From assembly GCA_964446015.1 (NCBI GenBank), contig CAYUMT010000002.1:1-49238 (forward strand): DNA of 49,238 nt, written 5' to 3'. The notes below the pieces were generated by a model. That model was not told where the DNA came from and ran no database searches. It saw nothing but the letters and a program-made list of their open reading frames with translations. Positions 54 to 36,514 of this stretch are shown here, in pieces. The translations under genes were made by a program, and so were the position numbers. The stretch is from Candidatus Hadarchaeota archaeon (GTDB taxonomy: Archaea; Hadarchaeota; Hadarchaeia; Hadarchaeales; Hadarchaeaceae). Position 1 is the stretch's first letter, and every line of letters begins with the position of its first letter.

Positions 54-1170
54 ATGTGTAGGACGGTGAGATTTATTAACCATTTATCGGGATCTTCTTG
101 CCAAAATATAGATGGAATAAACCACCCAGAGTTTGCAGCATCATATCAGACAATAAAACAATCAAGGTCCTTGAGAGAAGTCATTAATGCTCTAGGCTTC
201 GATGGTACCAGAGAAGTTTTCTATGGGATTTATGTAAACAAGGGCAAGAGCATGGAGGAAATGGCGGAAGAATTGGCTAAGGATTACAGGACTATCAATA
301 AATGGATTAAAAAACTTGGAATCAAACCTATACCGTACAAAGCCCCAAGTCATCTGCCAAGGCTTGTTCTAGAAACGCCGATGGAAAGGACGAGATTGGT
401 TGTCGTAGATGGTAAGCATGTGAAAATGTTATCGATCCATTTAACCGATGAACTTGCTTATCTCATAGGTTTTACAATAGGCGATGGCTACGTACGTGAT
501 AATGGAATCGAGCTTTGCAATACTGAATTCGGTCTTATAGATCCTCTCCTTTCTATTTTGAGCAAAGTTAGCATGGAGCACGGCGGAAAGATAGGTATCC
601 AGTACAGGGAGTTTAAAACTGGTAAGGGCATGGATCGGGAGGGCGCATACAGCTACAGAATCTGGTTCAGCAATTCCAACATAGCAAGGTTGATAAAAAC
701 AGACAAAAAATGGAGGAACGACACTGGAATTATTGTTGGCCAATAAACTTGGGTACTTTTTAGCAGGATTTTGGGATGCAGAGGGCACAGTGTGGTACTT
801 CGTTGGAGAAAGGTTGCTTGTAGAAGTGAAGCTGTGTCAGAATAAAATTAATCTTGAGTTAATCAAGAAAATCAGTAGAAGTTTGGATAATTTGGGAATC
901 AAAACAAGTTGTCAATTATCTCATAAGAAAAATAAGTTACGCTATTTTTATGGTAATCCCCGTAGAGCTAAAGAAAATGTGTACATACTGCACGTTTTCA
1001 AGGAGAGCGTTCAGGATTGGATTAGATTAGTTGGGCGTAACATGTTACATCCCAAAAAGGCGAGTAGGATAAAGCAACTCGAAATGCTAATGGAGAAAGA
1101 AAGTTTAAAAAGGTCAAGATCGATGCGATCAGTTTATTCCAATAATGGGATTACATCTGCAAAAATATAG
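54..1170 (+). pseudogene. Free-standing double-motif LAGLIDADG homing-endonuclease-like gene, split by a frameshift (ORFs 54..746 and 733..1170)
   Basis: Each ORF carries one LAGLIDADG-type motif (LAYLIGFTIGDGYV in ORF1, LGYFLAGFWDAEGTV in ORF2), the two halves of a single-chain enzyme. ORF2 is in the +1 frame relative to ORF1 and begins at a TTG. The frame change must fall in 694..746, which contains an A6 run at 705..710. There is an HTH-like N-terminal segment (MEEMAEELAKDYRTINKWIKKLGI). Confidence 0.7.
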
Positions 1171-1838
1171 CTAATAAATTCGGTCACAGTGGATCTACTA
1201 AAAAGCGTAACCACGGAATTTCTGGTGATCCCGACCGTGAGCCCCCGTTTTGCCACTTCAAATACGCAATACCAGAGCTTGCCCCTTTCCAGATAATCAC
1301 GGTAGAGCTTAGTATCCGCCAGCCCTGAGCCGGCCAAGGCCAGCTTCCCAACGTTCGGAATGTCAACCTCGTCGAACCAGATAAGCTTAGTAGCATGGGG
1401 GTTTGATTCATGTAGGTCCCTGAGGGTATCATTGGTGATTTTCGCCTCCACTATCGCCCCTGTTTTTATGAAGACTATCTCGCTGAGCTTGTTCGCTATG
1501 TAGTTCGTGAGTAGCTTCTTTACCCCCCTAGCCTTCGAGGGCGCGAGCACTATAAGGAAAGTTCGTCTTTTGTATCGTTTTATCCAGAAAGGGCACTCCT
1601 CCGTCACTAGGGTCTCGACCAGACCGCGCTTGTAATAGCGGCTGATCACGAAGTCCTTGCTGAAGATTCCGGAGAGCGAATCTTCCTCCATTTTTAGCTC
1701 TATTATTTCGGTCGAGAGTTTAGATGTTTTTCCGCCTGATTCATGGGGCTCTTCCTCCCTGAAACCCTTTAGCTTACGAGCGATAAGCGACAGCTCGGTT
1801 GGCTCCTTCAACTCGAAGATTTTCGCGACTAGTACCAT
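1134..1838 (-). CDS. Hypothetical protein (about 234 aa), divergent from the SMC-like operon
   Basis: Long ORF with protein-like composition. The track start at 1928 is a TTG. The ATG at 1838 (MVLVAKIFELK...) has a G-rich stretch upstream, so I prefer it. I recognise no family motif. Confidence 0.5.
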   Translation of the reverse strand: MVLVAKIFELKEPTELSLIARKLKGFREEEPHESGGKTSKLSTEIIELKMEEDSLSGIFSKDFVISRYYKRGLVETLVTEECPFWIKRYKRRTFLIVLAPSKARGVKKLLTNYIANKLSEIVFIKTGAIVEAKITNDTLRDLHESNPHATKLIWFDEVDIPNVGKLALAGSGLADTKLYRDYLERGKLWYCVFEVAKRGLTVGITRNSVVTLFSRSTVTEFISYIFADVIPLLE

Positions 1839-1999
1839 ATGTGTGCCCCAAAGATTTAGTGCATGAGACTTAATGAAGCTCGTAGCAGGTGTTTTATTAA
1901 CTTTTGTGTTTTTAGCGCCTGATTTCAATCGGCAAAGACCCTAAATGGTGGGACACTTTTAAGTTTAGCAGCCAAATATCTATGGAAGGAGCTTAGTTT

Positions 2000-3916
2000 A
2001 TGCCTAAAGTTACTAGCGCCCTAGTCCGGGAGATAATACTCGAGAACTTCATGAGTCATGAGTATTCTAGGATCCCGCTTAAAGCCGGGCTGAACCTAGT
2101 AGTCGGGCCAAACGGTGCTGGTAAGTCATCGATACTTCTCGGGCTGGCAGTTGCATTGGGCCAGACCTATACCGAGCGCTCTCGCAGGCTCGGTGACCTG
2201 ATCCGGAGGGGCAAGGACCTCGGGCGCGTCAGCGTAGTTTTCGATAACGCTGTCCAGGGTGGCAAACGCCCCATAGCGAGCGTCAATTCCGACACAATCG
2301 TCCTCTCCAGGTACCTAAGCAAGGACGGAAACTACTGGCATGAGGTGAACTCGAGAACATCAACAAAGGGTGAGGTCCTGCACCTTTTATACAGGCTCTC
2401 GATAAACCCGGACAACATGCTGATTATAATGCACCAGAGCATGATCGATGTGTTCGGCGCGATAGATACGAAAGAAAGGCTGAAGTCGGTTGAGGAGGCT
2501 GTCGGTCTGAGGGACTACCGGGAGACAATTCTTGAGGCTAGGGAGAAGCTGTCCCACACCCTGAGCGAGGAGGAGTCGACCCGCAGCCTGCTAGAGAAGG
2601 CGAATGAAACTCTGCGATACTGGGAGGGGGAGTACCAGCGGTTCAAGCGTAAACAGGAGCTCGCATGCAGAAAAGGGGAGTTGGAGCTCGAGCTCGCGTG
2701 GGCCAAGGTCATAAAGCAGTCGGAATCTGCGGAGAACTCCCGTTCAAAGTTGGCCGAGCTGAAGAAACAGCTAGGGGAGATAAAAGTTGACCTGAATAAA
2801 AATTCTAAACTAGAGGGTAGACTCGAAAAAAATCTGAAGGAGTTAGAGTTTGAAATAGACTCCACCTATCAGAGGCTTATAGAGCAGGAGCGGGCAAATG
2901 CTGAGGCGGAGGCCATCGGTAAGTTGCTTGCGGGGCTGAAAAACTCGTTGCTGGGAACCAAGGCCAAGTTAGGCGACTTCGTTAAGGGTTTGGATCCAGA
3001 TTTAAGGCGCGCGCGCGAAGGGGTCACGAACTCCAACGAGCGGATTAAGGAGACCAAGTCCAAACTTGTCGAAATAAAGGGAAAAACCGAGAGTTCCAGG
3101 AAGTCATACATTAATTCCAAGGTAAGGGCAGCAGTACTCGGGCTAAAGAGCGAACTTCTAGAGGGGGAAATCTCAGAGGTCCAGTCCTCGCTCAGAAATC
3201 TAATGAGGGAGCTCGAGGGGCTCGAAAGGGAGGCGAACGAGGTTGGTCCCAAGGTAGAGACTAATCGCAAGCCTCAGGAAGTTCTTGACGAGCTGAAGAT
3301 CACCAACGCGCATCTAATGGGCCTTGCCGATGTTTCCCCTGATGTCGAGCGCATGTACACCAGCTATCAGAACACGCTCAAGGAGCTCCAGGCTAAGGCC
3401 GAGATCGCCGCGGCAAACCGCAAGCGCGCCCTGGAAGAGCTGGAGCTCAGGAAGCAGAGGTGGAAGAGCGAGTTGAACAAGCTGCTGAGGGAGGTCAGGG
3501 TTAAGTACGTGGATATATTGAAACGCGTCAGCGCATCTGGCGATGTGCGCCTTTCGAACCCAGATGATATAGATGAGGCGGGGATTGAGCTACTGGTCGG
3601 CTACAGGGGGGCGGAGCCGCGGGTGCTGGACGCTCAGACGCAGAGCGGCGGGGAGCGGACGACGGCGATAATGTGCTTCCTGCTGGCGCTCCAGCAGCGG
3701 ATTCAGTCGCCCATCAGGGCGATAGACGAGTTCGAGATACACATGGATCCCAAAAACCGCGAGCAGATGATGAGAGAGATACTTGGAATGATGCACGGCG
3801 AAACAGCTCAGTACATCATCATCACGCCCGGGCAACTCGTTGACGTTGAGATGGTTCCGAACGTGATAACGGTCCAGAATATATCTGGCTCTTCCAGCGT
3901 GAAGGTGGCTGCGTAG
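2000..3916 (+). CDS. Short SMC-like ABC ATPase (638 aa) with coiled-coil arms and no recognisable hinge or zinc hook
   Basis: Walker A GPNGAGKSS near the N-terminus. Q-loop-like IIMHQSMIDVF. C-terminal signature QSGGERT followed by Walker B/D-loop IRAIDEFEIHMD. About 350 aa of E/K/L/R-rich heptad-like sequence lies between the head halves. No CxxC hook and no roughly 150-aa globular hinge. GGAAGGAG lies upstream of the ATG. Confidence 0.85.
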   Translation: MPKVTSALVREIILENFMSHEYSRIPLKAGLNLVVGPNGAGKSSILLGLAVALGQTYTERSRRLGDLIRRGKDLGRVSVVFDNAVQGGKRPIASVNSDTIVLSRYLSKDGNYWHEVNSRTSTKGEVLHLLYRLSINPDNMLIIMHQSMIDVFGAIDTKERLKSVEEAVGLRDYRETILEAREKLSHTLSEEESTRSLLEKANETLRYWEGEYQRFKRKQELACRKGELELELAWAKVIKQSESAENSRSKLAELKKQLGEIKVDLNKNSKLEGRLEKNLKELEFEIDSTYQRLIEQERANAEAEAIGKLLAGLKNSLLGTKAKLGDFVKGLDPDLRRAREGVTNSNERIKETKSKLVEIKGKTESSRKSYINSKVRAAVLGLKSELLEGEISEVQSSLRNLMRELEGLEREANEVGPKVETNRKPQEVLDELKITNAHLMGLADVSPDVERMYTSYQNTLKELQAKAEIAAANRKRALEELELRKQRWKSELNKLLREVRVKYVDILKRVSASGDVRLSNPDDIDEAGIELLVGYRGAEPRVLDAQTQSGGERTTAIMCFLLALQQRIQSPIRAIDEFEIHMDPKNREQMMREILGMMHGETAQYIIITPGQLVDVEMVPNVITVQNISGSSSVKVAA

Positions 3917-3918
3917 AT

Positions 3919-4710
3919 ATGTACAGCGATCGTCAGGAGCTGTTGCTGCGAGTGGTGGACCTGTGCGACTCGGTTAGGAAGCGTGGCTTGGACCCGTTCG
4001 ACGTAGAGGTCCACGAGTTCTTCGACAGGCTGAGGGAACTCCTACCCAAGCTTAAGAAAAACGAGGAGCTCTATATGGACATCCAAGCTGTGCTTGGTCT
4101 GGCTGATGTTGTATTCTATCAGAGCGAATGGATTAAGTACAAATCCTCGATGCTATACCTCGACCCCCTGCTAATAATGCTCAAACTTTACGCCCTCCCG
4201 CCTAAGGATCTAGCTGAGGTGCTCGTTCGCGCGTGGCATCCAATAATCGATATGGAGAGCCTCTCGCCGCCTGGAATCAGAGACGGCATGGACTACTGGC
4301 GCAACCTGCCCGCGCTCGACGAAAGAATGCGGGATTTAGATGTTACTGAGGTGATGACCGGGGAGATCGCCCGCAGAGAGCTCGCCCGCATGGGGATACT
4401 CACCGAAGAGGACTTGACTACACTTTTAGATAGAAACTGGAGGGAGTTGAAGGACGCGGCCGGCGAGCGCGACGCGATTTCTTACTGGGATTTTATCCAC
4501 AGCAAAAGTTTCGAGGAGACGGTGTTGAAGGCCTGGATAGTCAGCTTCCTCGTCAGCTACGGCTACGCCACATTGGAAGTCAAACCGCTTGAGGAGGAGA
4601 TAACCCTCAAACCATTAGCTAAGCCGCAGGATTTGGAGCACGTAACGACCTTTTCAGTGCCCATATCAATCGCTCGCGAGGATTGGCTCAGGAGGAATAA
4701 GCGTGGCTGA
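3919..4710 (+). CDS. ScpA-like kleisin subunit
   Basis: The ATG lies 2 nt after the SMC-like stop codon. The N-terminal ELLLRVVDLCDSVRKRGLDPFDVEVHEFFDRL resembles the ScpA N-terminal LDLLLxLIxxxxxDIxDIxIxxITxQY pattern. The C-terminal KAWIVSFLVSYGYATLEVKPLEEEITLKP resembles the ScpA C-terminal winged helix (FLAxLELxKxxxxxxxQ). At 263 aa it has ScpA-like length. Confidence 0.65.
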   Translation: MYSDRQELLLRVVDLCDSVRKRGLDPFDVEVHEFFDRLRELLPKLKKNEELYMDIQAVLGLADVVFYQSEWIKYKSSMLYLDPLLIMLKLYALPPKDLAEVLVRAWHPIIDMESLSPPGIRDGMDYWRNLPALDERMRDLDVTEVMTGEIARRELARMGILTEEDLTTLLDRNWRELKDAAGERDAISYWDFIHSKSFEETVLKAWIVSFLVSYGYATLEVKPLEEEITLKPLAKPQDLEHVTTFSVPISIAREDWLRRNKRG

Positions 4711-5311
4711 GGATCAGGATGTTGCCGAGGTTCGTGGGAAACTGGCGCGAGCCGCCCAGCTCCTGCTGTTCAGACACCATATGCAGCCCGGGACCAAGGC
4801 GTGGGAGCTGAGACGCGCGCTCGGGAGGGATTTCCTGCAGATAGTGAAGCTGCTGGATGTTGAGCTGGAGAAACTGGGTCTGACGGTCAAACGCGTGAGC
4901 GAGGGCGAAGAGGATTCTGAGTCGGACCGATACTTCGTCACCCTGCGCGGCCATCCCAAGCTCACGGACGCTCGGACTTTCGGGTGGCGCATAGACGACA
5001 TGGGCATGCTGACCGTTGCTCTGGCCCATATTCTATCGAAGCAGGGCAAGGCACCTCTGAAGGAGATCGAGCGAATACTTCAGGAGAAATTCCCCAGATG
5101 GCGCGTGGAATCCACGATTGATCGGTTCATCCGCCGTGGGTATCTGTCCGAGGATGAACAGGGGCTCTTGTATCTGGGATGGCGGGCACGGGCTGAAATC
5201 GACCAGAGGACATTGCTCGGCCTTTTGCTTGGAAAGGAGAAGTCAGAGGAATCAAAGGCCGAGCCCGAAGCTGAGGTACCAGATGAAGAAACCCAAAAAA
5301 AGATGGAGTAA
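4703..5311 (+). CDS. ScpB/MAGE-like tandem winged-helix (KITE-type) subunit
   Basis: The GTG start overlaps the kleisin stop by 8 nt. There are two consecutive winged-helix-like modules: LARAAQLLLFRHHMQPGTKAWELRRALG...LGLTVKRV and MLTVALAHILSKQGKAPLKEIERILQEKF...FIRRGYL. The tail is acidic. Size (202 aa) and layout fit ScpB/Nse3-like KITE proteins. Confidence 0.55.
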   Translation: MAEDQDVAEVRGKLARAAQLLLFRHHMQPGTKAWELRRALGRDFLQIVKLLDVELEKLGLTVKRVSEGEEDSESDRYFVTLRGHPKLTDARTFGWRIDDMGMLTVALAHILSKQGKAPLKEIERILQEKFPRWRVESTIDRFIRRGYLSEDEQGLLYLGWRARAEIDQRTLLGLLLGKEKSEESKAEPEAEVPDEETQKKME

Positions 5312-7535: not shown

Positions 7536-10406
7536 CTATTTCCATTTGAACCTCTTGAAAAGCGCCTCCCTCTCCCTACGCAAAATGAGCTCCAAAAACC
7601 TGTTGGAAAACTTGGGCTCTTTAGATAGGATTTCCTTGGCAGCTGAGGTTGTTATTCCCCTGCTTGACAGGGCAATAGCGGCGAGCTTACCGTGCCCCGA
7701 GATCAGCTTTGAGGTTTCAAGAATTTCATGCCAGGCCGCCACGCTCCTGCCACGGCCGACGAGTTCAATCGCTCGGCGTACTTCATCCTCAGATTCATCC
7801 ACCATACCCAACCTTTTTGAACCACAGGCCGGGCAGCTCGGCCTTTCGTCCAGCTTGTGGATCTGGAGTTCTTCGACGTAGCGCTTGCAATCAGCGCAAG
7901 CAAAGGTACGAGCCTCGCTGAGCAGGCGCGCCTTGGCCGACGCTATTGCCAGAAGTTTAATCCTTTCAGGCATGACGGGCTCTAGCGTCAGGTAGCGTTG
8001 TCTCCAGGCCAGGCTTGATATTGGCGTGGGGTCTAGCCTCTCACCAATGGATACAACTTCAATCTTGCCACCCTTAATCCGCTCTAGGACCTCCAATGTG
8101 CGCTTTAGGTCTAGGTCCTTTTGCACAACTTCCTTAAGCGCCTCCTCAAAGACCGGCGTGCCCCTTAAGGCGCGTATGAGCTTGTCGACGACGGAGCTGG
8201 TTATCTCCGCCTCGCGCTCCAGCACGCCCATCCTGCGCGCCACCTGAGTAAGCCGCCATCGGAAGAAGCGACTCTCCTCGATTATCTTTGTGAGATCCCG
8301 CTGCAGGTCCTTTGTGAGCTTTCCCTTCAGGATTTCCACCACCTGCTCGGGCTCCAGGGCCCTCGAGCGCAGCAGAATTCTGTACGGGTCAATCGAAACA
8401 GCTGTCGTCTCCTCAATCTCTCCAGATGCCTTGTATGCGAGCAGGCGAGCCAGCGTTCGGTTGACCAGCGTGCCGAAACAGGCGTTCACGACGCAAATTT
8501 CCTTAACCTTCTCGATCGTGACTCGGGAGTGAGTTGGCAGGGGCAGGCCGCTCCTCGACTGTTCATGGGCCTCTGCGAGGGCGAGCCTCATGGTTTCCCC
8601 CCTTGTACAGTAATCCTCCGCCAGTTTCTCTGTGATTTTATCAAATTTCTTGTCGGAGCGCACGAATTCCTCTACTCTTGCTCTCAGTCGTCCAACTTCT
8701 TGGGCTACCGAGTAAGGAACGGGGATTTCCTCCCCGATCCAAGTAGGTATCGCCCCGGCCGGGTCCTTGTCGGGCTTCACGAAGACCTTGTCCCTGAAGA
8801 CCTGCAAAATCCTCCAGAGTTCCCCCCCTATGACGAACTTTACCCCCGGCTCACCGTACTCCGCCACGAATGACTCGTCAAGGATTCCCACAGGTCTGTT
8901 GTGTGCATCGTCAACTACAATGTACTGCTTAGACACGGGGATCATCGAGAGGTTGCCGAAATAGTAATTGAAGACCCTCTCCGTAGACCTCGGGCGGGAA
9001 AGTTCCTTACCGTCATCCGAAACCCAAGCCAGCCTCCTCTCCAGGGTCTGGGCGAAGCTCAGCACCTTGAGAATATCTTCCTTGGTCAGCCCCTTGAATG
9101 GATAGGCGCGTCTGAAGACCTCGTATGCTTGGTCGACGCTACCTCTCCTCCGTGAGGCAATTATCGAGACCAGCGAGTGTAAAAGGACGTCAAGGGGCTT
9201 CTCAGGGACCTGGACCGGCTCCAGTTCATGTTGATGGGAACGCGCCGCTATGACTATGGACTCGATAGCGTCGTCTGGGTCCTGAACCACTATAGCGCCG
9301 TTTGAAACCTCACCTATCCTGTGGCCGCTGCGTCCCACGCGCTGCAGCAGTCTGGTCGCCTGCCTCGGGGAGTTATATTGGATCACGAGATCCACCCCAC
9401 CTATATCGAGGCCAAGTTCCATCGATGATGTGCATATCACACCCTTCAAGTCTCCCCCTTTGAGGCCCTTCTCCGCGCGCATCCGTGTGAGTGATGATAG
9501 TGACCCATGATGAACGCTTATTGGGAAGTTGATGTCCCAGAGGCGAAAGCGGCTGGCCAGAACCTCTGCTGTCGGGCGGGTGTTTGTGAATACAAGCGTC
9601 GAGCCGTGGTCATCTATCAGCTTGCGTATCGCGCGTAGCCTCGCCGCGACATGAGGGTAGGTGTAGAGTTTCGAGGCGAGTTTTTCGTCACGCTTCGTAG
9701 GCGTTGGGTAGATTACATCCAGCTTCGTTTCACGAGCTACGCTGACGTCCACCACCTCACAATTCCTTTCGGTCCCAACTAGGAACTTCGCCACCTCATC
9801 CGGGGAACCTATAGTTGCGGATAGTCCTATGACTTGGAACTCCCCGCCCTTCAGTTGTCTAAGGCGCTCAAGAGTGATGGAGAGCTGAGCCCCACGCTTG
9901 TTGTCGGCAAGCTCATGTACCTCATCCACGATGACGAATTGCACGCTGCGGAGGTACGTGCTCAATCTTCTGCCGAGGAGCAGGATCTGGAGGGTCTCCG
10001 GCGTCGTTATCATCACGTCAGGAGGTATCAGGGCTTGGATTCTCCTCTCGCGCGCCGCGGTATCGCCATGTCTAACGGAGACGCGGAAGTCGAGGCTCCT
10101 GCACCATTTCTCCAGGCGGTCGAGCATGTCCCTATTCAGGGCCCGGAGTGGGGTCAGGTAGATGATCTTGATTCCGCGCTCCCGAGTTTGGGACATCAGG
10201 AGTAGGTGGAGAGCGGGCAGGAAAGCGGCCTCGGTCTTCCCGGTGCCGGCTGGGGCGATTAGGAGCACATTTTTCCCATCAAGTATTTTAGGTATCGCCT
10301 CCTGCTGCGGCAAAGTGGGCTCTGTGAATCCACGTTCGGCCACCAACCTGCGGATTGGCTTGGCCAGCAAATCGAATGAATTGGATGTTTCCAGAATCCA
10401 CACCAA
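7536..10406 (-). CDS. lhr: Lhr-type ATP-dependent DEAD/DEAH-box helicase with C-terminal zinc ribbon
   Basis: Motif I APAGTGKTEAA, motif II VIVDEVHEL, SAT (LSATIG), QRVGRSGH in motif VI, a long Lhr-like C-terminal extension, and CADCKRY...CPACGSKRL. 956 aa. Confidence 0.85.
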   Translation of the reverse strand: MVWILETSNSFDLLAKPIRRLVAERGFTEPTLPQQEAIPKILDGKNVLLIAPAGTGKTEAAFLPALHLLLMSQTRERGIKIIYLTPLRALNRDMLDRLEKWCRSLDFRVSVRHGDTAARERRIQALIPPDVMITTPETLQILLLGRRLSTYLRSVQFVIVDEVHELADNKRGAQLSITLERLRQLKGGEFQVIGLSATIGSPDEVAKFLVGTERNCEVVDVSVARETKLDVIYPTPTKRDEKLASKLYTYPHVAARLRAIRKLIDDHGSTLVFTNTRPTAEVLASRFRLWDINFPISVHHGSLSSLTRMRAEKGLKGGDLKGVICTSSMELGLDIGGVDLVIQYNSPRQATRLLQRVGRSGHRIGEVSNGAIVVQDPDDAIESIVIAARSHQHELEPVQVPEKPLDVLLHSLVSIIASRRRGSVDQAYEVFRRAYPFKGLTKEDILKVLSFAQTLERRLAWVSDDGKELSRPRSTERVFNYYFGNLSMIPVSKQYIVVDDAHNRPVGILDESFVAEYGEPGVKFVIGGELWRILQVFRDKVFVKPDKDPAGAIPTWIGEEIPVPYSVAQEVGRLRARVEEFVRSDKKFDKITEKLAEDYCTRGETMRLALAEAHEQSRSGLPLPTHSRVTIEKVKEICVVNACFGTLVNRTLARLLAYKASGEIEETTAVSIDPYRILLRSRALEPEQVVEILKGKLTKDLQRDLTKIIEESRFFRWRLTQVARRMGVLEREAEITSSVVDKLIRALRGTPVFEEALKEVVQKDLDLKRTLEVLERIKGGKIEVVSIGERLDPTPISSLAWRQRYLTLEPVMPERIKLLAIASAKARLLSEARTFACADCKRYVEELQIHKLDERPSCPACGSKRLGMVDESEDEVRRAIELVGRGRSVAAWHEILETSKLISGHGKLAAIALSSRGITTSAAKEILSKEPKFSNRFLELILRREREALFKRFKWK

Positions 10407-33647: not shown

Positions 33648-33766
33648 AAAGTTTCTACCGGTTGTATCCCTTTGAACATTATCATAAAACATTAATTTGC
33701 GGTAAATAACAGTACCAAGAGTTAGAAACATACTTCTTTATAGGTTAAGATTGATTGTTGCATTAT

Positions 33767-36514
33767 ATGAGAAAGAAAGTTGTAGTTGGCGCAATATTAA
33801 TCTTAACGCTATTCGCAGTCATATTTGTTGTCCCCGGTTTAGCGATTGACTATTGGTGGTTTGAATCAATAGGATACCTTCAAGTTTTCATGATTAATCT
33901 CGAGTATAAGCTTCTCCTATTTTTTGTCGGTTGGATATCGACCTCGTTTTTCCTGTTACTAACTTGGAGGAAAGTCAATAAGGCACTAAAGGGCAGGCTC
34001 TCTCCCCTTGGTAACAATTTATTCAAGGCTTTATCGATCATTATTGGCCTCGTAGTTGGCATGTTTCTCAGTGGAAAGTATCTGGTTGTCCTGAGTTTCC
34101 TGAACCAGACCTCTTGGGGTGTAGCCGATCCTATTTTCGGCCAAGATGTGTCTTTCTATGTCTTCACCCTTCCCTTCATCGAAACGATACTAACTTTCGC
34201 CGCCATCGTCTCTGCGCTGATTTTGATCTCATCAGTCTCCACATATGTCGCGGGGATAACCGCCATTGAGTCGAGTACAGAAGGGGCCACGAAAAAAATT
34301 AGATTAATCCCTCCGGCTAAGTTTCTTAGATCCCCACTAATCGTCGGATCGCTAGTCGTCCTAATTGCAGCGGCCACCGCCTTCGCTTGGTTAGGGCGCT
34401 TCTCTTACCTGTGGGGGTTCTCCCCGGGGGCATCCGTTCCAACGCACGCCGATTACATGGCCGCGAATTACCTCATCCCATACACTTGGGTTATGGCATT
34501 TGGAGTGATATTGCTAGGTGCCCTTACAATATACGCAATTTTAAAGTTGGATAAGCTTCGTGCCTCCATAGAAAATGGGGGACTTTTGGGTTTGAAAAAA
34601 GAGATTGCCATTCTAGCTATCGTGATCGTGATATTGTTTATAATTCCGGTAGCGGTGTTCGGGGCAATCAATAACTTTTCAGTAAGGCCCAACGAGCCAG
34701 GTATTCAGGAGCCTTATCTCGAGAGAACGATCGAGTACACCAAGATGGCCTACAATCTTGACGATGTGGTCAGCATAACTTATTTCCCCCGCCCTAACAA
34801 CCTGACCGCTCAGGAAGCACTGGAAAGCCCGACGGTGAAAAACGCCAGGATAGTGGACTATATGCCGACCATGACATCTTATGAAGCGAAACAGAGGCTT
34901 AGGGCTTACTACGATTTCTACGATGTGGATGTGGATCGCTACTTGATAGAGGATGAAAAACAATTAGTCGTCATTAGCGGGAGGGAAGTTAATTATAGCG
35001 ATGGGTGGCAGAATAAGAAACTGTTTTTCACCCATGGTTTCGGGGCCGTGGTTTCCCCGGCCAATAGGACTGAGGTAGATGGATCCCCAGTATTAAGCGT
35101 TAAGGATATTCCTCCAAAAAGCGAGTGGAGGGATATTGATATCAAGGACCCCAGAATCTACTTCGGCGAAATGACAAATGATTACGCGATAGTAAATGCC
35201 AAAGGCTTGGACGAGTTCGATTATCCCTTGGGGGATAAAAACGTGAATTACAGGTACGAGTTCGACAGAGGGATTAAGCTGGACAGCATTTGGAAGAAGC
35301 TCTTCATCTGGTCCTACACCGGAGACCTCGAGATTATAGCCTCGGGTTATTTGAGTGACGATTCCAAGCTCCTGCTTCACAGGAACGTTCATTATCGAGT
35401 TGAGAAGATAGCTCCGTTTCTGCGCTACGATCCGGACGCTCAGACCTTCATTGGGAAGGACGGTGGAATTTATTACATCATGAACGGGATAACTGAAGCC
35501 AGCCGATACCCTTATTCTTACTCCGATTTTAATGCTCCGGGTTACCTCTCTGACAGCGTGAAGGCTTTTGTGAAGTCGGACACTGGCGACGTGCAGTTTT
35601 ATATTGTAAACGATAACGACCCGATGGTTCTGACGTATTCGAAAATCTATCCAGACCTCTTTATAGATAGAAAAAAGATGTCGGAAGATTTCAGGGGGCA
35701 TCTGATTTATCCGCCGACTCTGTTCGAAACGCAGCTGAAAATTTTCAGCCGATACCACATGAGCGATTATCAGGCGTTCTATCAGAATGAGGATTTATGG
35801 TCGCCTGGGGAGGAGAGGTACCATGGAACTGTCACGAGAGTAGAGCCCTACAACGTCCTTTTAGATGTTTCCAATATACCTGGCCTCGGAAACAAGAAGG
35901 ACGAATTCACTCTTATCCAGCCCTTCACTCCAGATGGGAAACAAAACATGCGCGCTTGGGTTGGGGTGTCCCAGGATCCTGGGAACTACGGTAAGATGTT
36001 TGCACTTGAATTTCCCAAGGGCGAGCTTGAGAGGGGTCCGATGCAGGTAGAGGCTATAATCGACCAAACTGGGGAAATATCCACGCAGTTTACCCTATGG
36101 GAAGGGGCAGGTAGTACGGTGCTTAGAGGGAATCTGCTCGTTCTGCCGGTCAAGGGAGACATCCTGTATATCGAGCCAGTCTACCTCAGCGCGGAAACTG
36201 CCCCCTACCCTCAGCTAAAGCGGGTTGTGGCCGTATACAAGGATAAGGCCTCTATGGAGGACAGCTTGGAGAAAGCGGTGGCGGCGGTTTTGGGTGGTGC
36301 TGTCCCCATTCCCCCGGAAAACCGGCCAGTGGAGAACCTGCCTGTGGAAAACACGTATGCGATTATAGTCCAAATCGTTCGGGAGCACCTGGAGCTGACG
36401 GACAATTACCTCGGGCTGATGAGCGAACGCAGGTATGCCGAGGCTGGTGTGGTAATGGAAAAGATCAGCGCCTTGGAGGACGAGCTGAAAAAGCTGGTTG
36501 CAACGCTCCCGTAA
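33767..36514 (+). CDS. UPF0182 family large membrane protein
   Basis: About 915 aa. The N-terminal multi-TM region is followed by a large soluble region with RIYFGE, YPLGD, LIQPFTP and LLVLPV...LYIEPVYL motifs characteristic of UPF0182 (COG1615) as I recall. The track start at 33755 is a TTG and the first ATG is at 33767. Confidence 0.75.
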   Translation: MRKKVVVGAILILTLFAVIFVVPGLAIDYWWFESIGYLQVFMINLEYKLLLFFVGWISTSFFLLLTWRKVNKALKGRLSPLGNNLFKALSIIIGLVVGMFLSGKYLVVLSFLNQTSWGVADPIFGQDVSFYVFTLPFIETILTFAAIVSALILISSVSTYVAGITAIESSTEGATKKIRLIPPAKFLRSPLIVGSLVVLIAAATAFAWLGRFSYLWGFSPGASVPTHADYMAANYLIPYTWVMAFGVILLGALTIYAILKLDKLRASIENGGLLGLKKEIAILAIVIVILFIIPVAVFGAINNFSVRPNEPGIQEPYLERTIEYTKMAYNLDDVVSITYFPRPNNLTAQEALESPTVKNARIVDYMPTMTSYEAKQRLRAYYDFYDVDVDRYLIEDEKQLVVISGREVNYSDGWQNKKLFFTHGFGAVVSPANRTEVDGSPVLSVKDIPPKSEWRDIDIKDPRIYFGEMTNDYAIVNAKGLDEFDYPLGDKNVNYRYEFDRGIKLDSIWKKLFIWSYTGDLEIIASGYLSDDSKLLLHRNVHYRVEKIAPFLRYDPDAQTFIGKDGGIYYIMNGITEASRYPYSYSDFNAPGYLSDSVKAFVKSDTGDVQFYIVNDNDPMVLTYSKIYPDLFIDRKKMSEDFRGHLIYPPTLFETQLKIFSRYHMSDYQAFYQNEDLWSPGEERYHGTVTRVEPYNVLLDVSNIPGLGNKKDEFTLIQPFTPDGKQNMRAWVGVSQDPGNYGKMFALEFPKGELERGPMQVEAIIDQTGEISTQFTLWEGAGSTVLRGNLLVLPVKGDILYIEPVYLSAETAPYPQLKRVVAVYKDKASMEDSLEKAVAAVLGGAVPIPPENRPVENLPVENTYAIIVQIVREHLELTDNYLGLMSERRYAEAGVVMEKISALEDELKKLVATLP

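Follow-up and report, generated by a model that had tools for sequence, protein, structure and literature searches.

The three genes packed together near the start of the window (the whole 49,238-nucleotide stretch from Candidatus Hadarchaeota archaeon analysed here) likely encode, in its Hadarchaeota form, the SMC5/6-related complex of archaea, which we envisage as an ATP-dependent DNA clamp. As a family the trio is already known, since it corresponds to the 'SMC5/6-related' operon of archaea (PMC8665677; bioRxiv 10.1101/2024.01.07.573240), and what appears to be new is the missing hinge of the Hadarchaeota motor protein, the gene trio itself having already been described. The ORF read gives a 2-nt gap between genes 1 and 2 and an 8-nt overlap between genes 2 and 3, the same tight packing that the first-pass annotation had noted; a GGAGC motif lies ~8 nt 5' of the gene 1 ATG, and the adjoining intergenic region is presumed to hold putative promoters (Table 1).

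Table 1. Features of the trio locus, in window coordinates
Feature	Position (nt)	Strand	Remarks
g0	1134..1838	-	234 aa, divergent from gene 1
Intergenic region between divergent g0 and gene 1	1839..1999	.	161 bp, sequence read
Gene 1 (mini-SMC, SMC5/6-type ABC head, short coiled-coil arm)	2000..3916	+	638 aa, ATG start
Walker A GPNGAGKS	2105..2128	+	aa 36-43
Ascending arm helix	2510..2950	+	aa 171-317, ~22 nm; AF2, pLDDT 85-92
Arm tip loop LGTKAKL, in place of hinge	2951..2971	+	aa 318-324, 7 residues; AF2
Descending arm helices, joint-like breaks aa 416-424, 442-447	2972..3526	+	aa 325-509; AF2
ABC signature SGGER to Walker B IDEFE	3644..3736	+	aa 549-553 to aa 575-579
Gene 2 (Nse4-type kleisin)	3919..4710	+	263 aa, ATG start
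Gene 3 (Nse1/Nse3/MAGE-type tandem winged-helix KITE)	4703..5311	+	202 aa, GTG start

The head halves of gene 1 are complete, as had been claimed: besides the Walker A motif, which is invariant across alignments A3 and A4, and the signature-to-Walker-B stretch, we located the Q-loop MHQS (aa 144-147) and, at the H-loop position, ITPG (aa 608-611), and the catalytic Glu is present in the Walker B IDEFE. Pfam (SMC_N, 1.5e-28), the motif positions and the AF2 model all show ABC head motifs split by a coiled coil, as expected of an SMC protein. The suspicion that this head is nearer to SMC5/6 than to canonical Smc held up in the PDB ranking, with Smc5 as the best phmmer match (3e-27) and the gene 1 family profile retrieving Smc5 (3e-43) and Smc6 (1e-35) ahead of Pyrococcus Smc (2e-30) and SMC2/3/4 (~1e-21), and again in a library of 1.84 billion proteins, where the first matches beyond the archaeal clade were eukaryotic SMC5. 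A placement in Rad50/RecN/AAA_23, which had been named as a possible outcome of profile searches, is not what these returned, Rad50 reaching only 3e-11 in the same PDB search. In a head-domain NJ tree (296 columns, built without SMC1-4, MukB, JetC or Rad50 sequences), a split with 100% bootstrap sets the short forms and eukaryotic SMC5/6 apart from the 9 canonical SMCs. Aligned residue by residue with yeast Smc5, gene 1 shows an SMC5/6-type signature-to-Walker-B stretch; it also shares with eukaryotic Smc5/6 the QY..ITP motif of the H-loop region, and the best Foldseek matches of the gene 1 model are 5xei (Pyrococcus Smc head, coiled coil and joint) and Smc5/6 chains. Gene 1 is thus an ABC ATPase of the SMC5/6 type whose catalytic motifs are all in place.

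All three proteins match eukaryotic SMC5/6 best, in sequence as well as in structure, and the combination of kleisin and KITE is common to both; the proposal of a complete SMC, kleisin and KITE module is borne out by these matches. Gene 2, with a C-terminal winged helix at ~aa 189-236 (nt 4483-4626), matches Nse4_C in Pfam (6.6e-4), as do 20 of its 23 family members (best 7.7e-8), and the family profile found EID3/NSE4B (7e-7), yeast Nse4 (3e-4) and no others in the PDB. ScpA (PF02616) gave no Pfam match at E <= 1 for gene 2 or in the 23 family members; the earlier 'ScpA-like' label is therefore given up, the family matching only Nse4/EID3 in PDB and Pfam, and homology identifies gene 2 as an Nse4-type kleisin. 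For gene 3, an AF2 model of moderate confidence (pLDDT 64) supports the tandem winged helix that had been recognized earlier, followed by an acidic disordered tail. Its best Foldseek matches are Nse3 (7dg2_C), MAGE-A3/A4/A11, Nse1 and then MukE, and Pfam MAGE is found in 18/20 family members and SMC_Nse1 in 6/20; the scores are weak throughout (MAGE best 0.002, Foldseek 3e-4 for Nse3, TM 0.3-0.5). ScpB is absent from the best 50 Foldseek matches, and PF04079 has no Pfam match at E <= 1 in gene 3 or its 20 family members, so that the 'ScpB-like' label fell as well. The likeness to MAGE/Nse3 stood, although Pfam MAGE covers the second winged helix and not the first, where it had been placed. We therefore assign gene 3 as an Nse1/Nse3/MAGE-type tandem winged-helix KITE.

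Could the trio be a canonical Smc-ScpAB that has diverged or been truncated, or could a misassembly or broken gene have produced it artefactually? The best NCBIfam match of gene 1 is indeed SMC_prok_A (2e-49), at 168 bits far under the 729-bit cut-off, and ScpA-like patterns had been noticed on first reading, but this explanation is contradicted on several counts and is hardly credible. Canonical SMCs form their own group in the head tree at 100% bootstrap, and no ScpA or ScpB Pfam match occurs in either partner family. Moreover, 117 full-length Hadarchaeota-type homologues of gene 1 from independent assemblies are of equal length, with 498-517 residues from Walker A to signature, which argues that the shortness of gene 1 is due neither to chance nor to truncation, and the concern that the 638-aa ORF might be a truncated or misassembled smc is thereby answered. 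Hadarchaeota genomes also hold a separate ScpB-like KITE, having been scored for it along with SMC5_SMC6_related and Nse1_Nse3_related, and at least one, WYZ-LMO6, has a canonical SMC operon as well (10.1101/2024.01.07.573240); the trio is probably a second SMC system alongside canonical Smc-ScpAB.

The hinge is the domain thought to define SMC proteins, and the arm of a strict SMC measures ~45-50 nm. Neither a globular hinge nor an arm of that length is found in gene 1. In the AF2 model (mean pLDDT 75.5, arm 85-92), ~339 residues (171-509) between the head halves are predicted to be helical and to form one antiparallel coiled coil of ~147 residues per strand, ~22 nm long and hence below half the canonical length, in keeping with the shortened arms seen on first reading; the return strand comprises helices 325-415, 425-441 and 448-509. 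The earlier claim that the turn-around region, which contains the AF2 loop 318-324, harbors neither hinge nor hook is sustained by this loop, by the absence of a Pfam match to SMC_hinge (PF06470) in gene 1, and by the positions of its Cys residues, which occur only at 223 and 559 and leave no CxxC at the tip; a central CxxC is likewise found in 0/48 short-form representatives. The model thus predicts head halves joined by a coiled coil that has a joint-like break and turns back in a simple hairpin, lacking both hinge and zinc hook. Conservation in gene 1 is lowest at the tip (majority fraction 0.23 vs. ~0.5 in the neck and 0.7-0.84 in the head), where indels in the Hadarchaeales alignment reach 19 aa.

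The short form is shared by at least 48 clusters (50% identity), and the clade also has longer members. Two are hinge-sized, P0418 (982 aa, locus L165) and P0436 (928 aa, locus L167), with homologous kleisin and KITE genes directly downstream (profile A1 1e-28 and 7e-36; profile A2 4e-25 and 1e-6); their heads and proximal arms align with gene 1, from which they differ by 290-340 additional residues exactly at the tip position. In P0418 this segment is Pro/Gly-rich and charge-poor, resembling a globular domain, a putative hinge. Three Bathyarchaeota relatives (P0379, P0382, P0388; 1,016-1,047 aa) have 42-47% identity to gene 1 across head and proximal arm, branch from within the short forms of the head tree (89% bootstrap), and carry a tip insertion of ~460 residues whose exact centre is occupied by C[DE][KR]CGS, which looks like a putative Rad50-type zinc hook; neither kleisin nor KITE genes lie next to them.

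These relatives bear on an alternative, namely that gene 1 forms a stable dimer through its coiled-coil tip and tethers two DNAs, the kleisin chaining heads of different dimers. RecN and Rad50 are hinge-less coiled-coil ABC ATPases able to dimerise at the tip and thus set a precedent; RecN-like tip-to-tip interfaces can be poorly conserved, and the hook-like motif, in relatives nested among short forms, would imply that apical dimerisation is used within the clade. However, we hold a tip dimer to be unlikely for the trio, as the tip of gene 1 is its least conserved part, tolerates 19-aa deletions within one order and has no Cys, and the relatives with the hook no longer have kleisin and KITE genes beside them, which suggests that hook and kleisin are alternative rather than combined solutions. 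Because the tip of the arm lacks conservation and varies in length, we surmise that dimerisation of the clamp most likely occurs via heads and kleisin, perhaps with zipping of the arms, rather than via the tip.

By analogy with yeast Smc5/6 and Smc-ScpAB, from which we infer stoichiometry, mode of dimerisation and DNA clamping, two ATPase molecules would engage via ATP sandwiched between their heads, and a single kleisin would bridge them, contacting one head at its neck and the second at its cap, while carrying a KITE dimer. DNA resting on the engaged heads may then be enclosed by the head/kleisin/KITE module, much as yeast Smc5/6 does in its DNA-clamp state. Should this be so, the complex would serve chromosome maintenance or repair as a DNA clamp or sensor gated by ATP, and would not extrude loops with long arms and trap DNA between these and a hinge. 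The trio differs from eukaryotic SMC5/6 in the length of its SMC protein (638 vs. ~1,100 aa) and its lack of a hinge, and in having a single SMC gene, whose product is presumably a homodimer, and a single KITE gene, whose product is without a RING; the trio block yielded no gene for Nse2 or Nse5/6.

Orthologues of all three genes are kept in the same order throughout Hadarchaeales (synteny in the window and at L001, L004-L006 and L168-L170), and the trio also occurs in Thermofilales and in other archaeal metagenome contigs, TACK-type archaea included; this answers the earlier call for a survey of related archaea. The block retains 56-76% identity across Hadarchaeales, and its flanks are housekeeping genes that differ by locus, a combination that speaks for a core-gene pattern and not a defence island. 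Hence we deem it distinctly unlikely that the trio serves in SMC-based defence against plasmids or viruses, in a role like that of Wadjet or Lamassu in which the ATPase with its short arms would sense foreign DNA. On the side of defence, gene 1 resembles LmuB in size and arm (~650 aa, ~20 nm; PMC10586767), has weak PADLOC matches (mad3 4e-22, AriA 2e-17, LmuB 3e-12) and has LAGLIDADG-like ORFs just upstream, and human SMC5/6 restricts episomal DNA (PMC10586767). Yet the PADLOC matches of gene 1 are generic ABC-head matches, neither PADLOC nor PHROG gives a match for genes 2 and 3, the conserved block contains no gene for a nuclease or another effector, and the Walker B Glu of gene 1 is intact, unlike the E-to-Q form of typical LmuB (PMC10586767).

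LmuB, RecN and Rad50 are, like gene 1, short or hinge-less coiled-coil ABC ATPases; they use hooks or tip dimers and have nucleases or effectors as partners. The partners in the trio are instead an Nse4-type kleisin and a KITE, and the likeness of gene 1 to LmuB (50th in Foldseek) and Rad50 (3e-11) is much weaker than to Smc5/6. Candidate systems were set aside as follows: for Lamassu, the LmuB match is generic, genes 2 and 3 are unmatched and the Walker B DE is intact; for Wadjet JetABCD, PADLOC gives JetC at 1e-7 only, with JetA and JetB unmatched, and neighboring ORFs scanned with Pfam contain no Toprim/JetD-like domain; for Rad50/SbcC, there is no tip Cys and no Mre11-like gene among the scanned neighbors; for ASRP (NCBIfam NF045487), gene 1 scores 56.8 bits where the curated cut-off is 300; and for Smc-ScpAB, genes 2 and 3 and their families leave the ScpA/ScpB models unmatched. 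'Hinge-less' SMC homologues in ocean metagenomes, related to Actinobacteria (PMC12153180), share with gene 1 a natural absence of the hinge but differ in being a bacterial clade derived from canonical SMC; by a term search, kleisin and SMC5 are not mentioned in the main text of that report, which accordingly contains no partner analysis and no SMC5/6 relationship.

The archaeal SMC5/6-related complex has the same three components, gene order and affinity to SMC5/6, Nse4 and Nse1/3 as the trio, in which an SMC5/6-type head is found with an adjacent Nse4-related kleisin and an adjacent Nse1/Nse3-related KITE. Yoshinaga & Inagaki described an SMC5/6-related aSMC in archaea in 2021 (PMC8665677), and van Hooff et al. 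reported operons of SMC, Nse4-related kleisin and Nse1/3-related kite (bioRxiv 10.1101/2024.01.07.573240), with Hadarchaeota positive in Supplementary Table 3 and Hadesarchaeon WYZ-LMO6 as a gene-cluster example. In the five Hadarchaeota rows listed in that table Nse4_related is 0, in contrast to the Nse4_C matches in the gene 2 family here. The question whether the trio belongs to an already named family thus has a divided answer: the operon does, and the hinge-less architecture appears undescribed. A hinge-less, short-armed form of the archaeal complex was not found in the searchable literature; in the main texts of both papers a term search showed protein length, hinge loss and short arms to be undiscussed, 'hinge' occurring there only in introductions, general descriptions, figure legends and reference lists.

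On the upstream side, g0 has no match in Pfam, NCBIfam, PDB or PHROG. It adjoins gene 1 divergently in all six short-form loci whose sequence extends upstream (the window, L001, L004, L168, L169 and L170), and the trio is absent at 25 of the 46 loci retrieved via g0; we regard g0 as a candidate partner only. LAGLIDADG-like ORFs are situated on this side too.

The first-pass annotation had described three tightly packed ORFs, and their coordinates and junctions match ours exactly, with 2 nt between gene 1 and gene 2 and an overlap of 8 nt between gene 2 and gene 3. On gene 1, Pfam SMC_N (1.5e-28) covers both ends of the protein; the head is of SMC5/6 type and, judged by its motifs, catalytically complete. 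This affinity, a lead of that annotation, was borne out by: 1) phmmer of gene 1 against all PDB chains, which ranked human and yeast Smc5 first (3e-27), followed by Pyrococcus Smc (1e-21) and Smc6 (2e-19), and the gene 1 family profile against the PDB, with Smc5 (3e-43), Smc6 (1e-35), Pyrococcus Smc (2e-30), SMC2/3/4 (~1e-21) and Rad50 (3e-11); 2) an exhaustive HMMER search of 1.84 billion cluster representatives, in which the first source-named matches beyond the archaeal clade were all eukaryotic SMC5 (one insect, three fungi or green algae), with a choanoflagellate (EukProt) protein as one more match, at E-values of 1e-36 to 1e-32; 3) a neighbour-joining tree built on 296 columns from 104 head domains, in which nine canonical SMCs, bacterial and archaeal, were set apart in 100 of 100 bootstraps from the set of short forms (hinge-less SMCs the size of gene 1), long relatives of these and eukaryotic SMC5/6. 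The residue-level alignment of the family with yeast Smc5 runs through TQSGGER...P(F/I)R..DE and QY..ITP, and JGI has annotated one 638-aa relative as 'structural maintenance of chromosomes protein 5'. Among other assignments considered for gene 1, ASRP reached 56.8 bits in the curated model against a cut-off of 300 bits, the curated models for Rad50, RecF and canonical SMC were far under threshold, and RecN/RecF, LmuB and JetC were dropped on scores.

Features of the window and of two related loci (nucleotide positions refer to the window unless a locus is named; aa positions refer to gene 1)
Feature	Position	Strand	Remarks
g0	1134-1838	-	234 aa; true start M31 of ORF 1134-1928; intergenic region to gene 1, 1839-1999
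Gene 1	2000-3916	+	638 aa; SMC-type ATPase
Gene 2	3919-4710	+	263 aa; kleisin
Gene 3	4703-5311	+	202 aa; GTG start; KITE
Lhr-type helicase	7536-10406	-	956 aa; DEAD, Helicase_C, WH_Lhr, DEAD_assoc; 2.2 kb downstream of trio
N-terminal head half	aa 1-170		AlphaFold2 model
Walker A GPNGAGKS	aa 36-43
Q-loop MHQS	aa 144-147
Ascending helix	aa 171-317		AlphaFold2 model
Tip loop LGTKAKL, 7 residues	aa 318-324		AlphaFold2 model; within the turn-around region named in the first-pass annotation
Returning helices	aa 325-415, 425-441, 448-509		AlphaFold2 model; followed by C-terminal head half
Signature SGGER	aa 549-553
Walker B IDEFE	aa 575-579		catalytic Glu present
Bathyarchaeota SMC relative P0379	L002 2105-5248
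Bathyarchaeota SMC relative P0382	L003 5001-8087

With respect to the partners, gene 2 as a single sequence matched Pfam Nse4_C (6.6e-4), as did 20 of the 23 members of its family (best 7.7e-8), while ScpA was matched by none of the 23; the family profile, searched against the whole PDB, recovered EID3/NSE4B (7e-7) and yeast Nse4 (3e-4) and nothing else, with the C-terminal winged helix aligned. These profile matches identify gene 2 as an Nse4-type kleisin. Because the family profile of gene 3 yielded no match in the PDB, its assignment was made via structure. In its AlphaFold2 model (pLDDT 64) two winged helices stand in tandem, and Foldseek with this model returned as top match Nse3 of the Nse1-Nse3-Nse4 complex (3e-4), with MAGE-A3/A4/A11, Nse1, MAGE-G1 and then MukE as the other best matches and ScpB absent from the top 50; in Pfam, MAGE was weakly matched by 18 of 20 family members and SMC_Nse1 by 6 of 20. 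As modelled, gene 3 is an Nse/MAGE-type KITE, in line with the MAGE lead of the first-pass annotation. Its ScpA and ScpB labels did not hold, and its overall interpretation, a compact kleisin/KITE-type SMC complex without a hinge, was essentially right save that the partners are of Nse4 and Nse/MAGE type and that the gene family had already been described.

Yoshinaga & Inagaki (PMC8665677) have defined 'SMC5/6-related aSMC' homologues, mostly in the TACK superphylum and in some Euryarchaeota, and van Hooff et al. (bioRxiv 10.1101/2024.01.07.573240) have reported in many archaea a second operon, in which an SMC5/6-related SMC is joined by a kleisin related to Nse4 and a kite resembling Nse1/3. 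[quoted passage not shown] From the published operon and these entries, the trio belongs to a described family that is known from genes alone, and it most likely co-exists with Smc-ScpAB in the host. In contrast to the Nse4-like gene 2 family found here, Nse4_related is scored 0 in all five rows shown, so that the survey seems to under-detect this kleisin family. In the main texts of both studies, a term search located 'hinge' nowhere but in the introduction, general descriptions, figure legends or the reference list, and full-text literature searches retrieved no account of an archaeal SMC5/6-like complex that lacks a hinge; the sole report of a 'hinge-less SMC' that we found (PMC12153180) deals with an unrelated bacterial clade, with kleisin unmentioned in its main text. 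The remaining new point is the architecture: a natural SMC complex with kleisin and KITE, short arms and neither hinge nor hook.

Pfam detected no SMC_hinge in gene 1. In the AlphaFold2 model (24 homologues as input; mean pLDDT 75.5, arm 85-92), the layout of helix, loop and helix gives an arm of ~147 residues per strand, or ~22 nm, interrupted near the head by joint-like breaks and ending in a bare hairpin. Cysteines occur at positions 223 and 559 and nowhere else, leaving no hook, and the hinge-less and hook-less mini-SMC proposed from the first reading is confirmed on all of these counts. The top Foldseek match of the model was 5xei (1e-17), a Pyrococcus construct named 'Smc head with coiled coil and joint', followed by Smc6 and Smc5 cryo-EM chains, with Rad50 weaker and LmuB at rank 50. 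Within the short family, conservation (majority fraction) falls steadily from the heads (0.7-0.84) through the neck (~0.5) to the tip (0.23), where Hadarchaeales members differ by deletions of up to 19 aa. Since conservation is lowest at the tip and higher in the neck, we favor dimerization of gene 1 via heads and kleisin, perhaps with zipping of the arms, over dimerization at the tip; a RecN-like tether mediated by the tip is, on the same ground, unlikely. By analogy with the architecture of Smc-ScpAB and yeast Smc5/6, we surmise that two ATPase subunits would engage on ATP, that one gene 2 kleisin would bridge neck and cap while carrying a dimer of the gene 3 KITE, and that DNA would be clamped atop the engaged heads. 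The complex would then be a DNA clamp or sensor rather than a loop extruder that entraps DNA with arms and hinge.

The short length of gene 1 is its native state, as homologues of the same size come from many independent assemblies: the best 120 of 2,833 relatives in the database search were Hadarchaeota-type proteins of 554-652 aa, 56-76% identical to gene 1 (the query itself excepted) and, where named, from Hadarchaeum, Hadesarchaea or Hadarchaeales, and the span from Walker A to signature was 498-517 residues in 117 Hadarchaeota-type homologues. The gene 2 and gene 3 families are as conserved as that of gene 1, and their members lie on contigs equal in length to those with gene 1. On these relatives, the host is a Hadarchaeota archaeon. 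The 100 best representative clusters included 48 complete proteins of 548-685 aa with a span of 429-563 residues, none of these 48 with a central CxxC. A short SMC with homologous kleisin and KITE genes directly downstream recurred on a JGI contig (L001, 40% identity), at four further Hadarchaeales loci (L004, L168-L170), in a Thermofilales MAG (L005) and in 'Thaumarchaeota archaeon UBA160' (L006); the last two were the useful relatives among the matches listed (at least 600, mostly canonical bacterial SMCs) in a genome-collection scan with the gene 1 alignment and its Walker A pattern. The trio is conserved as a core gene would be, inside variable flanks. A role in defence, as an SMC-based system against foreign DNA, seems improbable, since the block is vertically conserved and contains no effector gene, genes 2 and 3 have no PADLOC matches and the Walker B of gene 1 is intact.

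Longer relatives occur within the same clade. P0418 (982 aa) and P0436 (928 aa) retain the same trio and carry 290-340 extra residues exactly at the position of the gene 1 tip. The central segment of P0418 is called hinge-sized solely on the basis of its globular-domain composition, and phmmer against the PDB gave no hinge match for it. Three Bathyarchaeota clusters (P0379, P0382 and P0388; 1,016-1,047 aa), 42-47% identical to gene 1 over head and proximal arm, carry a tip insertion of ~460 residues, and exactly halfway along their long coiled coil stands C[DE][KR]CGS, a candidate Rad50-type zinc hook by its motif; phmmer of the P0379 insert against the PDB detected no known domain. Kleisin and KITE genes were absent after the SMC at both Bathyarchaeota loci examined (L002 and L003), and these long relatives were nested among short forms in the head tree (89% bootstrap). 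A more distant relative in a complete genome (CP147778.1; L166 4001-7632), of 835 aa and 28% identity, has Pfam SMC_hinge and unusually short arms and is followed by genes of 211 and 167 aa that neither the Nse4-like nor the KITE profile matches; this adds one more compact SMC operon, whose type is uncertain.

We tentatively postulate that, among the prokaryotic relatives closest to eukaryotic SMC5/6, the prevailing form may be a natural, minimal SMC-kleisin-KITE machine without hinge or hook, acting as a head-proximal, ATP-gated DNA clamp, and that the arm tip may have been remodelled repeatedly within the clade, with a globular hinge-sized insert in some members, a bare hairpin in most, and in others a zinc hook like that of Rad50 on a long arm, without adjacent kleisin or KITE genes. 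The hinge is taken to define SMC complexes and to be essential to their mechanism, as the site of dimerization, the closure of the DNA-entrapping ring and a gate in loop-extrusion models. If our proposal is true, kleisin/KITE-based function does not require the hinge and 'SMC-type' and 'Rad50-type' architectures interconvert. A widespread, vertically conserved hinge-less complex with kleisin, KITE and an arm of 22 nm would amount to a natural experiment, separating the SMC activities that need a hinge or long arms from those of a clamp of head, kleisin and KITE. Since SMC5/6 has no nearer relatives among prokaryotes, the architecture of these proteins is also relevant to what the SMC5/6 ancestor looked like and to how far phylogenies of heads alone can be trusted. 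The predicted 2:1:2 complex would be small (~215 kDa) and, on that account, attractive as a minimal system for studies by cryo-EM and single-molecule methods.

The sole other conserved neighbor of the trio is g0, an ORF transcribed divergently from gene 1, which adjoins the trio in all six short-form loci with upstream sequence, the other flanks of these loci all being different. Searches of Pfam, NCBIfam, PDB and PHROGs returned no match for g0. In a scan starting from g0, the trio was absent in 25 of 46 testable loci, and g0 homologues there lay in unrelated contexts (e.g. H+-PPase, MFS transporters, arginine genes). A dedicated fourth subunit was rejected on this count and g0 was kept as a candidate only; as close homologues (62-66% identity) also lie in unrelated gene contexts, it may be a partner or merely a conserved neighbor. 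Linkage of the trio to the Lhr-type helicase is inconsistent: besides the window, Lhr lies within a few kb in two other lineages, as a full Lhr at L165 (10586-10949) and as an ORF resembling the Lhr C-terminal domain at L001 (11410-12729; E 5e-12), and it is absent within 5-8 kb of the trio in L004, L168, L169 and L170. Upstream of the block, two consecutive, overlapping ORFs on the + strand (54-746 and 733-1170), the second with LAGLIDADG_3 (1.2e-6), may represent a split or decaying homing-endonuclease gene. Farther downstream, a 919-aa ORF (33755-36514, + strand) matches the uncharacterised family UPF0182 over its full length (3.5e-194).
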